From a bacterium (GTDB lineage Bacteria; Zhuqueibacterota; Zhuqueibacteria; Oceanimicrobiales; Oceanimicrobiaceae), in the NCBI GenBank assembly GCA_046757025.1, contig JBHHXN010000007.1:1-64000 (forward strand): a stretch of DNA of 64,000 nucleotides, given 5' to 3'. This document shows, one piece after another, positions 18 through 5,894 of the stretch (the stretch's first letter is position 1; the number at the start of each line of letters is the position of its first letter). Made by a program: the position numbers and the translations under genes. The notes under the pieces were generated by a model that was not told where the DNA came from, searched no databases, and worked only from the letters and a program-made list of their open reading frames with translations.

Positions 18-198
18 AATTTGTTGTAACATTAATTAGGAAACGTTCTACTAGTAGAGCCGCGTCCCATTCGTAATGATTTCGCGCAATTGCCGAACGA
101 ATTAATCCCAAATAACACGGCAATTAAATATCAAATAAATTTCAATTTTTTAAACACAAAATCGGGAATAATTGGAATCAGGGCTTTGTTTCCCATTT

Positions 199-224
199 AA
201 CACATGCATACATCTGCATATATT
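199..224 (+). promoter_or_regulatory. Putative ArsR/SmtB-family operator (12-2-12 imperfect inverted repeat)
   Basis: AACACATGCATA-CA-TCTGCATATATT, 9/12 arm symmetry, 30 nt upstream of the operon start; RBS AGGAGGA at 238-244. Confidence 0.55.
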
Positions 225-254
225 AATGTGAAATAGCAGGAGGAATTACCTAAA

Positions 255-1514
255 TTGAGTACAATAAAAATTGCTGTGATCGGCGCCGGTCCCATCGGAT
301 TGGAAGCGGCGTTGTATGCCCGACAGCTCGGATTTGAAGTTGAGATTCTGGAAAAAAGATTCGTTGGAGCGAATATTTCTCACTGGGGTCACGTGCGATT
401 ATTCTCCCCCTGGAAAATGAATCATTCTGCGTTGGGTGTAAAATTATTAAAAGAAAATTTCGACAAGTGGCAAGAACCCACACAGGAAGCCTTTTTGACA
501 GGCAGGGAATATGTTGAATCTTACCTTCAACCTCTCAGCCAATTGCCGCAAATTGCCCAAAATCTCCACACAGGCATAGAAGTGTTGAGCGTCGGTCGCG
601 CCCGGGTTTTGAAAGGGGAGTTAATCGGCAACCCGCAGCGAGCAAACCATTCCTTTCGATTGTTAACCCGGGATGCGAGTGGAGAGGAAAAGATTTTTCA
701 CGCTGACATCGTCATCGATGCGACAGGGGTTTACGGCACGCCAAACTGGATCGGAGAAGGCGGAATTCCAGCCGTGGGAGAACGCCGGGCTCGGCCATTC
801 ATCGATTACCACCTCCGGGATATTTACGGCGCCGACCGTGCAAAATTCGCTGGCAAAAAGACCTTGCTCATTGGAGCGGGCTACTCCGCGGCCACTACCA
901 TTTGCGATTTCCAAAATTTGATCCGCGAAGAACCCGAGACTTCGGTCATCTGGGTAATTCGCGAGAACCGCACGGAGCCCATCCCAGTTATTGAGGACGA
1001 CGCGTTGCCCAATCGCGCCAGTCTGACGCGGACGGCCAATGCCATCGCACAAAACGGCGAAACACAAATTGCCTTCCGAAACAAAACCGTCATCCATTCC
1101 ATAGAGTATATTGAAAACGAAGCGCAATTTTTAGTGCTCCTGAAATTCGGTAACTCGAAAGAAGAAATCAAAGTCCATCGCATCATCGCCAACGTGGGTT
1201 ATGGGCCGGACAATTCTTTATACAGAGAATTGCAGGTGCACGAATGCTATGCCACTCGCGGCCCCATGAATTTAGCCGCTGCGCTTTTGGGAAGCGCCTC
1301 CGCCGACTGTTTGACTCAAGCCAGCCAGGGCGCGGAAACACTGAAAAATCCCGAACCGGATTTTTACATCATCGGCAACAAAAGTTATGGCCGCAATTCC
1401 ACATTTTTAATTCGCGTGGGTTTGAGTCAAATCGTTGAGGTTTTTTCACTCATAACAGGCAATAACCACTTAAACCTTTACGAAGATATTCATCAAAAAG
1501 TGAGCGTAAAATAA
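255..1514 (+). CDS. FAD/NAD(P)-dependent oxidoreductase (flavoprotein of the type found in ars operons)
   Basis: GAGPIG and GAGYSA Rossmann motifs, DATG, C-terminal EPDFYIIGNKSYGR..TFL; TTG start with strong RBS. Confidence 0.8.
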   Translation: MSTIKIAVIGAGPIGLEAALYARQLGFEVEILEKRFVGANISHWGHVRLFSPWKMNHSALGVKLLKENFDKWQEPTQEAFLTGREYVESYLQPLSQLPQIAQNLHTGIEVLSVGRARVLKGELIGNPQRANHSFRLLTRDASGEEKIFHADIVIDATGVYGTPNWIGEGGIPAVGERRARPFIDYHLRDIYGADRAKFAGKKTLLIGAGYSAATTICDFQNLIREEPETSVIWVIRENRTEPIPVIEDDALPNRASLTRTANAIAQNGETQIAFRNKTVIHSIEYIENEAQFLVLLKFGNSKEEIKVHRIIANVGYGPDNSLYRELQVHECYATRGPMNLAAALLGSASADCLTQASQGAETLKNPEPDFYIIGNKSYGRNSTFLIRVGLSQIVEVFSLITGNNHLNLYEDIHQKVSVK

Positions 1515-1515
1515 A

Positions 1516-2493
1516 TTGACAACCGAACAACTAAGTACCGGCGACAGCCAATGGCCGACCAGCAGCTCCTCCCCTGAACTTGTGGATCAAACAACTCAAG
1601 CCCAATATGTCGAACCCTCGGTAAAGGACGCACCCTGGGCGCCGCTTTATAGTCTCGACGCCCTGTGGTTTCAAGTCGGAGGCACCATTTGCAATCTCTG
1701 GTGCAGCCATTGTTTCATTAGCTGCAGTCCTCAGAACCACAAATTCGGTTTCATGGACCGGGCGACCGTTGGCAAATATTTAGCTGAATCAAAAGCCTTG
1801 GGTGTGAAAGAATATTATTTCACCGGTGGAGAACCGTTTATGAATAAGGACTTGCCGGACATTCTCAAAGACACCCTGGAAATCGGCCCCGCGACGGTGC
1901 TGACCAATGGTATCTTGATTCAAGAACGGGTGGCTAAAAAACTCCAGGAAATGGCGTCTCTTTCCATCTACTCTCTTGAAATCCGCGTGAGCATCGACGG
2001 TTTTAGCGCCGAAAGCCATGATCGGATTCGAGGAAAAGGCAGCTTTCAGAAGGCGCTTTCCGGCATCAAGAATTTAGTTGACCACGGATTTTTGCCCATC
2101 ATTACCGCGGCGCAAACCTGGGAGGAATCGGAAACCGAGAGCGTGTTTCAGGGATTTCGCCAAACGCTGAAAAAGTTAGGCTATTCCCGACCGCGAGTAA
2201 AACTGATTCCCCCTCTGCGAATTGGCCGGGAAAAAGTGCGCAGTCGCGGTTACGATAAATTTGAATTTATCACCAAAGAAATGATGACGGAATACGACGA
2301 CCATCTCCTGCAATGCACGCACAGCCGCATGGTCACCGACAAAGGCGTGTTTGTCTGTCCCATTCTCATCGATGACCCTGAGGCGAAAGTTTCCGATTCC
2401 TTAGTGGATTCTTTTTCGCCATATCCATTAAAACACCAGGCGTGCTATACGTGTTATTTGTCTGGCGCGATATGTCACAACTTTTCTTCATAA
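1516..2493 (+). CDS. Radical SAM protein with Cys-rich C-terminus (ArsS-like)
   Basis: CNLWCSHC (CX3CX2C), FTGGEP, TNG, VSIDG; C-terminal C..SRMV..CP..CYTC..C. Confidence 0.85.
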   Translation: MTTEQLSTGDSQWPTSSSSPELVDQTTQAQYVEPSVKDAPWAPLYSLDALWFQVGGTICNLWCSHCFISCSPQNHKFGFMDRATVGKYLAESKALGVKEYYFTGGEPFMNKDLPDILKDTLEIGPATVLTNGILIQERVAKKLQEMASLSIYSLEIRVSIDGFSAESHDRIRGKGSFQKALSGIKNLVDHGFLPIITAAQTWEESETESVFQGFRQTLKKLGYSRPRVKLIPPLRIGREKVRSRGYDKFEFITKEMMTEYDDHLLQCTHSRMVTDKGVFVCPILIDDPEAKVSDSLVDSFSPYPLKHQACYTCYLSGAICHNFSS

Positions 2494-2524
2494 AATACGA
2501 ACGGTAAATTTAAAGGAACAAAAA

Positions 2525-3721
2525 ATGAGCTCAAATTCAAACGGAAACTCTTCTCGAAAAACAAAAAAGCTAAACGTGGAAAAAGCGGTACGGCAGCGGT
2601 ACGAGCAAGGCGCCTTGACCCAGGAAGCGGCCTTGTGCTGCGCCTCTGCCGAATACGACAAAAAGTATCTCGAAGTCATTCCACCGGAAATTATCGAACG
2701 CGATTACGGCTGCGGCGATCCCTCCAAATATGTACAACCGGGAGAAACGGTTTTGGACCTCGGCAGCGGTACCGGTAAAATTTGTTACATTATTTCACAA
2801 ATGACCGGCGCGGAGGGACAGGTCATCGGCGTGGATATGAACCAGGAAATGCTCACCTTATCGCGCAGTTATTTAAAAGAGGTGGGGGATAAAATCGGCT
2901 ACCATAATGTAGAATTCAGACGCGGCAAGATCCAAGACCTGCGCTTGAATATGGACAAAGCCGACCTGTATTTGCGTGAGAATCCCATAAAAAATGCGGA
3001 TGATCTGATTGCGTACGATGAATTCGTTCAGGAACAAAAATTGAATCAGCCCATGATTGCGGACAATTCTGTGGATTTAGTGGTTTCAAATTGTGTGCTC
3101 AATCTGGTAAAAGATGAAGACAAAAAACAACTTTTCTCAGAAATTTTTCGTGTGTTGAAAAAAGGCGGCAGGGTAGCCATTTCAGACATCGTATCGGATG
3201 AAGACGTGCCCGAGCAAATGAAAAACAATCCCGAACTCTGGAGCGGCTGCATTTCTGGCGCTTACCGGGAAGACCTGTTTCTGAAAGAATTTGCAGACAT
3301 CGGCTTTTATGGCATTCAGATCGAGAAACGCGACGAACCCCCCTGGCAAACGGTGGAAGGCATCGAATTTCGCTCCATGACCATCACCGCCTACAAAGGC
3401 AAAGAAGGTCCTTGTTTAGAACGCAATCAGGCCGTAGTTTATCGCGGTCCCTGGAAAGCGGTCATCGACGATGACGGTCACACGCTCTATCGCGGCGAAC
3501 CCATGGCGGTGTGCGATAAGACCTTTCAAATTTATCAAAAGGCGCCTTATCAAAACGATATTATCGCCCTGGCTCCGCGTGAGGAAATTCCACTGGAAGA
3601 AGCCGTGCCATTCGCCTGCAACAAAAATGCTCGGCGCCATCCCAAAGAGACAAAAGGCCAGGAATACAACAAAACGAAATTTACCCAAGAGCCCTATTGC
3701 AATACCGACAGCTGCTGCTGA
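2525..3721 (+). CDS. arsM: ArsM/AS3MT-like SAM-dependent methyltransferase
   Basis: LCC, DYGCGDP, VLDLGSGTG, VVSNCVLNL, LWSGCISGA and terminal CC, matching the Cys pattern of arsenite methyltransferases. Confidence 0.7.
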   Translation: MSSNSNGNSSRKTKKLNVEKAVRQRYEQGALTQEAALCCASAEYDKKYLEVIPPEIIERDYGCGDPSKYVQPGETVLDLGSGTGKICYIISQMTGAEGQVIGVDMNQEMLTLSRSYLKEVGDKIGYHNVEFRRGKIQDLRLNMDKADLYLRENPIKNADDLIAYDEFVQEQKLNQPMIADNSVDLVVSNCVLNLVKDEDKKQLFSEIFRVLKKGGRVAISDIVSDEDVPEQMKNNPELWSGCISGAYREDLFLKEFADIGFYGIQIEKRDEPPWQTVEGIEFRSMTITAYKGKEGPCLERNQAVVYRGPWKAVIDDDGHTLYRGEPMAVCDKTFQIYQKAPYQNDIIALAPREEIPLEEAVPFACNKNARRHPKETKGQEYNKTKFTQEPYCNTDSCC

Positions 3722-3757
3722 TACTCACCTGAAAGCAAAAAAACGGGCTTCCGTTCT

Positions 3758-4552
3758 ATGCAGAAATTCGATTTCAAAAAAATAGCGGTATTTGGCGGCG
3801 TGTACAACAATTATCTGGCGCTGCAGGCTCTGGTTCACGACGCCCAAAAACGGGGAGTGGACCGACTTTACTGTCTGGGCGATCTCGGTGCTTTCGGTCC
3901 ACATCCGGACGCCGTTTTTCCGATTCTACTGGAGCAAAAAATAGAAGTGGTACAGGGGAATTACGATCATGCCATCGGGAATGAACTGGCGGATTGTCAG
4001 TGCGGCTACACCGATCCACGGGACAATCATTTTGCACAGATCAGTTATGATTACACGCTGGCACACACGAGTCGGGAATTCAAAATATGGCAGAAACAAC
4101 TACCGACAGAAATACGATTTGAAATGGGTGGGAAACGCTTTCTTTTGTGCCACGGCTCTCCAAGACAAACCAATGAATTTTTGTGGGAGTCCACCACCCC
4201 CACCCATTTTTTAGAAAAACTCTTTCGAGATTTCGAAACGGATGTGATTTTGACCACCCACACGGGCATTCACTGGCAACGTACTCTGGCGGATGGCAAA
4301 CTCTTTGCCAACGTAGGCGTGATCGGTCGGCCGGAAAACGAAGGCCAAACCAACGTCTGGTACGCCGTCATTTCAGTGAATGACGAGCCTCAAATCGAAT
4401 TTGTTCCACTGAACTACGATTACCCTGAATTAGCGCTTGAAATGGAAAAGGAGCAAATCCCGCAGGAGTTCATCCAAACTATCCTCACCGGCTGGTGGAC
4501 GACCTGTCTGGAAATTCTACCTGCCCGTGAGCGTCTGCGCGGTAAATACTAA
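3758..4552 (+). CDS. Calcineurin-like metallophosphoesterase-fold protein with degenerate metal site and CxC motif
   Basis: LGDL, GNYD, CHGSP, NVGVIGRP retained; DxH replaced by GVY and GHxH by THTG; CQCGY present. Confidence 0.8.
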   Translation: MQKFDFKKIAVFGGVYNNYLALQALVHDAQKRGVDRLYCLGDLGAFGPHPDAVFPILLEQKIEVVQGNYDHAIGNELADCQCGYTDPRDNHFAQISYDYTLAHTSREFKIWQKQLPTEIRFEMGGKRFLLCHGSPRQTNEFLWESTTPTHFLEKLFRDFETDVILTTHTGIHWQRTLADGKLFANVGVIGRPENEGQTNVWYAVISVNDEPQIEFVPLNYDYPELALEMEKEQIPQEFIQTILTGWWTTCLEILPARERLRGKY

Positions 4553-4556
4553 AAGA

Positions 4557-5894
4557 CTAACTGCCGATCTTATCACGCAAATATGGCAGCAAATTATCCT
4601 GCAAAACTCGCTCCTGATTCATGGAGTCGCGCTCGCGCACGGTGACGGTCTGATCTTCCAGTGTTTGCGAATCCACCGTAATGCAAAACGGTGTGCCGGC
4701 CTCATCCTGGCGGCGATAACGCCGTCCCACCGCGCCGCCTTCATCGTAAAAAACCATCATGTGTTTTTTCAAATGATCGGTTATTTTGTGAGCGATCTCC
4801 GGCATACCGTCTCTTTTCACCAGCGGGAAAATGCCGGTTTTTACCGGTGCGATTTTCGGGGAGAGCTTCACCACCACGCGGGTATCGCCGTTCAACTGTT
4901 CTTCTGTGTACGCATCCACCAGGCAGGTCAACAGGGTTCGGTCGCAGCCCGCCGAGGTTTCGATGATAAACGGAATGAAGCGCTCCCGCGTGGCATCGTC
5001 GAAATACTGCATATCTTTGCCTGAAAACTCCTGATGCTTTTTCAAATCAAAATCGGTGCGATTATGGATGCCTTCCAGCTCTTTCCAACCGAACGGGAAT
5101 TGGTATTCGATATCAAAAGCGGCCGCTGCATAGTGCGCCAGCTCGTCCGTTCCGTGCTGATGAAATTTTAAGTTTTCTTTGCGGATGCCCAGTTCATCGT
5201 ACCACTGAATGCGCTGCTGTTTCCAGTATTCAAACCATTCGGCAGCGGCGCCGGGCTTGACGAAAAATTGCATTTCCATCTGTTCAAATTCGCGGGTACG
5301 AAAAATGAAATTCCTCGGGGTTATCTCATTCCGAAAGGCTTTGCCGATTTGTGCAATTCCGAATGGCACTTTTTGCCGGGAAGATTGCAAAACATTTTGG
5401 AAATTGACGTAAATACCCTGTGCGGTTTCGGGCCGTAGATAAACCACCGAAGCATCGTCTTCCAGCGGTCCCATGTGGGTTTTGAACATGAGGTTGAATT
5501 TGCGCACCGCGGTGAGTTCGCCGCCGCAATGGCTCACCATTTTACTCGGCTTTTGCGGACAGGGCGTAGAATCGAGCTGATCAGCGCGGAAACGCCCCTG
5601 ACAGGTCTTGCAATCCACAAGGGGATCGGTGAAACCCTCTACATGACCGGACGCGTGCCAGATGGTTGGATGCATGAGGATGGAGGAATCGAGACCGACG
5701 ATGTCATCCCGTACCCGCACCATCCTGTTCCACCAGAAATCTTTAATGTTCTTTTTCAATTCACTGCCAAGGGGGCCGTAATCATAGCAGCTATCCAGAC
5801 CTCCGTAAATTTCACTGGACTGGTAAATAAAGCCTCGTCTTTTACACAACGAAACAATTTTCGACATGAGGTTGTTGGGCGACTCTTTGCTCAT
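4557..5894 (-). CDS. glyS: Glycine--tRNA ligase (homodimeric type)
   Basis: [36 protein letters not shown], anticodon-binding [13 protein letters not shown]. Confidence 0.97.

Follow-up and report, generated by a model that had tools for sequence, protein, structure and literature searches.

The window, as we call the whole stretch of 64,000 nucleotides analysed here (positions 1 to 64,000 of contig JBHHXN010000007.1, assembly GCA_046757025.1), is the start of contig C7 in a genome of 5.96 Mb and 374 contigs. Near its left end lie four plus-strand genes, separated by 1, 31, and 36 nt, that encode a flavoprotein, an enzyme of the radical S-adenosylmethionine (SAM) type, a methyltransferase of the ArsM clade, and a cysteine-bearing phosphoesterase-fold protein (Table 1). 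A first-pass annotation had picked out these packed genes as a candidate organoarsenical pathway in a window that is otherwise mostly minus-strand. Our open reading frame (ORF) calls agree on both the packing and the strand: 42 of the 56 ORFs of at least 150 amino acids (aa) are on the minus strand, and each of the 10 plus-strand ORFs outside the operon overlaps a longer minus-strand ORF. The proposed start had to be moved. Position 199 is inside an upstream stop codon, and the flavoprotein gene begins with the TTG at 255, behind AGGAGG.

Table 1. Features of the operon (positions are those of the window).
Feature	Position	Strand	Remarks
Possible sigma-70-type promoter, TTAACA-16-TATATT, weak	197..224	+	10 of 12 matches
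Two-Rossmann flavoprotein, 419 aa	255..1514	+	Pyr_redox_3, E 2e-15; KSYGR..TFL family of ars operons
Radical SAM enzyme, family without a name, 325 aa	1516..2493	+	CX3CX2C at 59-66; predicted ArsS stand-in
ArsM-clade As(III) methyltransferase (predicted activity), long form, 398 aa	2525..3721	+	NF040538 is the best model
Remodelled metallophosphoesterase-fold protein, 264 aa	3758..4552	+	Fold match; C80/C82 and C250

We looked for these genes in 44 loci that contain the radical SAM enzyme, in 61 related genomes, and in 30 more distant genomes that were reached through the radical SAM loci. An orthologue of the radical SAM enzyme (E of 1e-72 or better) is present in 27 of the related genomes. 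Only in those 27 do the remaining three genes reach orthologue level (in 25, 26, and 25 of them). In the closest loci, the named ones of which are from KSB1, Caldithrix sp., and Calditrichaceae metagenome-assembled genomes (MAGs), the four genes are adjacent and in the same order. Because all four genes are present in 23 of the 61 genomes searched and keep their order in the closest loci, the arrangement is not due to chance: the four-gene module is real and is conserved across a family of uncultured bacteria. The genes do co-occur, as had been anticipated, but they are not indivisible. In the 44 loci, the phosphoesterase-fold gene is present 41 times (two of the three loci without it run into a contig end), the methyltransferase 13 times, and the flavoprotein 11 times. 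The long methyltransferase is found in none of the 30 distant genomes and the flavoprotein in four; 19 of these genomes have a canonical ArsM above the cut-off and eight have no ArsM match of any kind. An obligatory four-gene unit is thus ruled out. The core is the radical SAM enzyme with the phosphoesterase-fold protein, and the methyltransferase and the flavoprotein are accessory. The radical SAM family spans KSB1/Calditrichota-like, Ignavibacteria, Gemmatimonadota, Planctomycetota, and Elusimicrobia genomes.

The radical SAM enzyme has the motifs CNLWCSHC59 and HQACYTC-x6-C307, with a twitch-like set of C-terminal cysteines (C267, C281, C310, C313, and C320). Both clusters had been recognized in the first pass, which placed the last cysteine two residues after HQACYTC instead of six. 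It had also called the enzyme ArsS-like, which is right as to resemblance and wrong as to membership. The enzyme scores 59.8 bits against the ArsS model TIGR04167 (cut-off 300), as compared to 458.5 bits for a true ArsS encoded elsewhere in the same genome. In a tree of 71 sequences, ArsS forms a clade of its own (support 1.0) and the radical SAM family lies outside it (0.88). (All trees were computed with FastTree and have local supports; this one leaves out three outgroup rows that were short or partial.) As for the resemblance, a profile of the radical SAM family aligns at full length with a profile of eight ArsS proteins (276 columns, probability 99.5), with all five C-terminal cysteines matched and CX3CX2C in register as well. 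A control of the ScmF-type SPASM group aligns to the family profile over the first 177 columns only.

The enzyme passes no NCBIfam model. The best, for the Rv1681 family (NF049973), gives 113 against a cut-off of 380, and we rejected this assignment. Comparison with ArsL (NF040542) gave no similarity (hhalign probability 1.9), and the enzyme lacks the RCCLKC tail that is described as binding arsenite in ArsL (bioRxiv 2024.02.01.577332); a control ArsL ends in RCCLKC and scores 653 against a cut-off of 450. A search with the family profile and a limit of E 1e-30 found 196 clusters at 50% identity, a large share of which are fragments, and an atlas search returned only radical SAM clusters without a name. 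The structural model (mean predicted local distance difference test, or pLDDT, of 86) is nearest to SkfB and BlsE, which are twitch-type. Fold searches with this model and with that of the phosphoesterase-fold protein returned generic SPASM/twitch and phosphoesterase folds, with no structure of ArsS, ArsL, or Car1 among the matches listed. By its sequence, then, the enzyme resembles ArsS but belongs to neither the ArsS nor the ArsL family.

The first pass had drawn a conclusion from the lack of arsenosugar glycosyltransferase-like genes and of an efflux pump in the window. This conclusion fails because the genes are elsewhere in the genome. On other contigs we found TIGR04282 (C3, 190.7 bits with a cut-off of 134), TIGR04283 (C32, 236.8 with a cut-off of 182), two DUF547-like genes (C11 and C4), the true ArsS and its partner TIGR04169 (both on C12), an arsM of the canonical kind (C119), and a fragment of acr3 where contig C180 ends. 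Among the 61 related genomes, TIGR04282 is above the cut-off in 24 of the 27 with the radical SAM enzyme, in six of the seven with ArsS only, and in four of the 27 with neither. Counted by family, it is present in all six families that have the radical SAM enzyme or ArsS and in none of the six that have neither. The distant genomes have TIGR04282 in 27 of 30 cases, an intact ArsS in none, and a broken ArsS in one. For all 57 radical SAM genomes, this makes 51 with TIGR04282 and two with ArsS.

The loci themselves also connect the radical SAM family to arsenic: an accessory gene of the arsenosugar type is present in 17 of the 44, and fusions join the radical SAM enzyme to the flavoprotein (L012, L061, P0123, and P0128), to ArsM at either end (radical SAM-ArsM in L006, L064, P0131, and P0179; ArsM-radical SAM in P0224), or to DUF2064 (P0267). 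For two of these fusions, the ArsM part belongs to the clade of ArsS-linked ArsMs (support 1.0). In family f10, the gene order is radical SAM, phosphoesterase, DUF2064-like, PiT, methyltransferase, TIGR04169. A Cupriavidus plasmid has PiT, a methyltransferase of the same subfamily as in our operon, an AhpD-like gene, a true ArsS (465.7 bits with a cut-off of 300), TIGR04283, and TIGR04282, in that order. Read side by side, the two arrangements suggest a swap of cassettes. In Roseomonas, a more distant member of the radical SAM family is accompanied by TIGR04282, DUF547, a phosphonate-type ATP-binding cassette (ABC) transporter, and the phosphoesterase-fold gene. With this linkage and the ArsM fusions, the organoarsenical role proposed in the first pass is supported.

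We lean towards reading the operon as an alternative entry module, by which arsenosugar-type synthesis would begin without ArsS and with the radical SAM enzyme in its place. The observations behind this view are which genes are present, what motifs they have and to which families they belong, how they are linked and fused, and what co-occurs with them across genomes; all of the chemistry we infer. The phosphoesterase-fold protein would use its cysteines to turn pentavalent arsenic (arsenate or a methylated As(V) species) into trivalent arsenic, and the ArsM-clade enzyme would methylate As(III) to dimethylarsenite, or DMAs(III). The radical SAM enzyme would then cleave SAM and join the 5'-deoxyadenosyl radical to dimethylarsenite, giving 5'-deoxy-5'-dimethylarsinoyladenosine (DDMAA). 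The flavoprotein might supply or remove electrons, and the unlinked TIGR04282, TIGR04283, and DUF547 genes would finish the sugar. ArsS and ArsL are the radical SAM enzymes named as forming C-As bonds in PMC12159101. In PMC13598754, ArsS is described as joining the 5'-deoxyadenosyl radical with DMAs(III), which yields DDMAA, and ArsL as needing a trivalent substrate and not acting on As(V) unless this is reduced in situ. Since ArsL needs a trivalent substrate and ArsS uses DMAs(III), a reductase partner would have a purpose. The proposed pathway is like that of ArsM and ArsS in that an ArsM gene adjoins the radical SAM gene and the partner genes are the same, be they in related loci or at other places in the genome. 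It differs in that the radical SAM enzyme is paired with a remodelled phosphoesterase-fold protein and that the glycosyltransferase-like genes of this genome are unlinked.

The model of the phosphoesterase-fold protein (pLDDT 88.5) matches SapH, 3rqz, and 1nnw, with template modelling (TM) scores of up to 0.77 (SapH). Its sequence does not have the canonical dimetal set of metallophosphoesterases (DxH, GD, GN, H, HxH). D42, N68, H132, and H168 are kept. In all 52 aligned close members, three of the metal ligands have been substituted (D14G, H16Y, and H170G) and C80, C82, and C250 are kept. Car1 of Rufibacter tibetensis is described as an enzyme that reduces As(V), for which Cys74 and Cys76 are essential and whose homologues sit between arsR and arsM (PMC12124457). 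We compared our protein with plasmid homologues in such an arsR/arsM-type setting (Paraclostridium, Adhaeribacter, and Pontibacter), which are 30-35% identical to it. The fold is the same, and the CxC motif of these homologues (at 74-76 or 75-77; C74/C76 in Paraclostridium and Adhaeribacter) aligns with C80/C82. The homologues retain the D, H, and H metal ligands, whereas our protein has G, Y, and G. Our protein also has an additional tail, WWTTCLE, which holds C250, and it is linked to the radical SAM enzyme instead of to arsR/acr3. Because the CxC pair aligns with that of the ars-operon homologues, the protein likely works as Car1 does, as a further-remodelled branch of these putative As(V) reductases.

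Several observations weigh against an ArsS stand-in. DUF3641 matches ArsS with E 1e-55 (both of two ArsS controls were hit), and it matched none of 36 members of the radical SAM family at E 0.05. The family is only about 20% identical to ArsS in the profile alignment, the ScmF control outscores a single ArsS over the core, and a sister relationship of the family with ArsS has a support of just 0.74 in the tree. A paralogous radical SAM clade (L132-L136, from five same-family genomes), nested in the wider family, has a similar layout of C-terminal cysteines, and in several cases a second radical SAM gene and a HemN-like gene alongside. We saw no arsenic neighbours in its five loci, so the cysteine layout is not specific to arsenic. 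The counts of genomes are patterns and not statistics, as the genomes are related (hence not independent) and most are incomplete MAGs, and the arsenosugar role of TIGR04282 and TIGR04283 is an NCBIfam annotation. Genomes with ArsS only have no orthologue of the phosphoesterase-fold protein (best E of 1e-17, versus 1e-125 or better for orthologues), so ArsS does without this partner. Finally, the window genome and one other (G058) kept both the radical SAM enzyme and ArsS, which redundancy explains poorly.

The true ArsS of the window genome (C12:5583-6656) lies with TIGR04169 in L074:5270-6656, and neither an ArsM nor a glycosyltransferase gene adjoins it. Since none of 20 other genomes of the same family has ArsS, it may have been acquired later. 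The broken ArsS (G080:C135:4910-6438) has several stops and adjoins TIGR04282 in a genome with the radical SAM family, which is consistent with decay of ArsS where that family is present.

The joint retention of both enzymes, the low identity to ArsS, and the obligatory partner with its conserved C250, which ArsS systems do not have, would also suit a third route to a C-As bond. In such a route, the radical SAM enzyme would act first on As(III) or methylarsenite (MAs(III)), or would transfer a different fragment of SAM, and methylation would follow as in arsinothricin synthesis, with the glycosyltransferase-like genes being shared. A different product had been suggested in the first pass, and a genome with both enzymes makes one possible, though it is not the best-supported reading. 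We consider this route unlikely. Just as doubtful is its corollary, that a dedicated cysteine reductase helps to make an organoarsenical different from both DDMAA and arsinothricin and that the system persists beside ArsS as the products differ.

The evidence from the methyltransferase (METHYLTRANSFERASE) bears on this alternative. The NCBIfam models that it matches best all describe kinds of ArsM, and it is below the cut-off of each: 379 of 500 for NF040538 (the ArsM of arsinothricin synthesis, a real example of which scores 609), 202 of 263 for NF008823, and 144 of 400 for NF038099. The ArsS-linked ArsMs of relatives are likewise below the named ArsM models. The cysteine pattern reported in the first pass is present (YGCG61, SNCV188, GCISGA241, and CC397-398, with CC38-39 in addition), and C38/C39, C63, C190, and C242 are invariant in an alignment with annotated ArsMs, in keeping with the As-binding cysteines and SAM-binding fold of that superfamily. 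The top five matches among solved structures are arsenic methyltransferases (E 2e-30). In a tree of 20 sequences with one outgroup, it groups with the proteins of Cupriavidus, a Staphylococcus plasmid, and the Pseudomonas arsinothricin ArsM (0.84/0.97), with all of which it shares an insertion of about 35 residues. It is an ArsM-clade protein, as had been expected, and arsenic methylation is its predicted activity. The nearest model and the insertion recall arsinothricin synthesis, but the same subfamily serves a true ArsS in Cupriavidus and a plain arsR-permease operon in Staphylococcus, so the methyltransferase does not point to an arsinothricin-like order of steps. Also against a third route are the lack of ArsL likeness and of the RCCLKC tail, the lack of arsQ and arsN1 in the loci, and the absence of the long methyltransferase from the distant genomes. 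The Staphylococcus protein (51% identity, in the arsR-permease-methyltransferase unit at L156:4693-7062) is annotated merely as "methyltransferase domain-containing protein". In a Paraclostridium plasmid arsM (L078:5779-6537), an in-frame stop falls exactly at the column of the catalytic C242, as selenocysteine or in a broken gene.

The flavoprotein has the expected KSYGR..TFL tail (KSYGRNSTFL376) and fails the ArsO model (NF040505; 33.8 bits, cut-off 425). It is about 35% identical to plasmid relatives, which may be ArsV or ArsZ; ArsV, ArsU, and ArsZ are flavoproteins that oxidize methylarsenite. All three of the plasmid regions that we read are arsenic operons, one with the order arsR-X-arsK. 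These ars-operon flavoproteins share the motif and one invariant cysteine (C352) with ours and, unlike ours, end in a cysteine-rich tail. The flavoprotein is likely a redox partner. Its solved relatives include thioredoxin and bacillithiol reductases as well as flavin monooxygenases, so electrons could flow in either direction. Because a different flavoprotein fills its slot in other loci, we suggest that the slot is for an interchangeable redox helper. An apparent selenocysteine in flavoprotein homologues was rejected: the single TGA in three genomes is the terminal stop, and the aligned region has no stop. Another contig of the genome (C290, L090:55-2415) encodes a protein of 786 aa in which a YpdA-like flavoprotein is joined to a 4Fe-4S membrane domain. 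Homologues of this fusion accompany the radical SAM family in 10 of 44 loci and lie next to ArsS in G058.

The reductase-like protein, the methyltransferase, and the flavoprotein all have relatives in resistance operons, and ArsV-type flavoproteins are described as protective against MAs(III) and Sb(III) (bioRxiv 2021.08.12.456183). The operon could accordingly serve plain detoxification, or act on another element (antimony or selenium), with a radical SAM enzyme that has nothing to do with C-As bonds. We regard this as the least probable of the explanations. Searches of the 44 loci by tblastn with the queries used found no acr3, arsB, arsK, arsC, arsH, or arsR, and hence no regulator or efflux gene; the genome has separate arsM, acr3, arsC-like, and arsN2-like genes; and the radical SAM family tracks TIGR04282 tightly. 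As to selenium, none of the four genes has a selenocysteine codon.

Neighbours of the radical SAM gene raise the possibility of uptake. A membrane protein of about 450 aa, with no Pfam or NCBIfam match at the thresholds used, is encoded directly upstream in 25 of the 44 loci (for example, L030:6641-7993) and is a candidate transporter for arsenic species. Porin O/P is found in 11 of the 44, and in Roseomonas the phosphonate-type ABC transporter lies between the radical SAM and phosphoesterase-fold genes. Together with the eight distant genomes that lack any ArsM match, these neighbours would fit a pair of enzymes that modifies or breaks down an organoarsenical taken up by the cell, whether a methylarsenical or part of an arsenosugar, as a form of salvage or tailoring. 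However, precursor uptake fits arsenosugar-type synthesis equally well, and ArsM is linked or fused to many family members. The idea that a transporter replaces ArsM is weakened by the 19 distant genomes with a canonical ArsM. Also, because 55 of the 57 radical SAM genomes are without ArsS, there would be no in-house intermediate to tailor. We judge salvage to be improbable, if a little less so than detoxification.

If the radical SAM family performs ArsS chemistry, then bacteria that lack ArsS could build arsenic-containing sugars, and surveys based on arsS, which would overlook those same 55 genomes, miss many arsenosugar makers. A conserved reductase-like partner would then account for the supply of the trivalent substrate, which is air-sensitive. 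Should the product differ, the operon would represent a new organoarsenical pathway. As the window genome carries both enzymes, they can be compared side by side in the same host. A literature search, largely outside subscription journals, found no paper describing the radical SAM family or the module. What this window contributes is a genome with both enzymes, a profile at the level of genomes, and the counterpart in Cupriavidus.

A class II tRNA synthetase gene, convergent to the operon, ends at 4557. The G+C content is 48.5%, against 47.2% genome-wide. Of the data sets listed as containing the sequence, none is of RNA, and the four of DNA belong to a single study, which may be that of the genome itself. 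Scans for promoters and terminators gave results at chance level (four sigma-70-type promoter sites seen, 4.8 expected by chance). Elsewhere in the genome, C4 encodes an ArsL-related radical SAM protein that is below the cut-off (G000:C4:30261-31487; 309.6 of 450). On C119 (L084:3761-6612), a MarR-like gene and the canonical arsM (305.9 bits, cut-off 263) lie with hgcA (430, cut-off 275), and a small ferredoxin-like ORF follows. This ORF is likely hgcB, which would link genes for mercury methylation to arsenic methylation.

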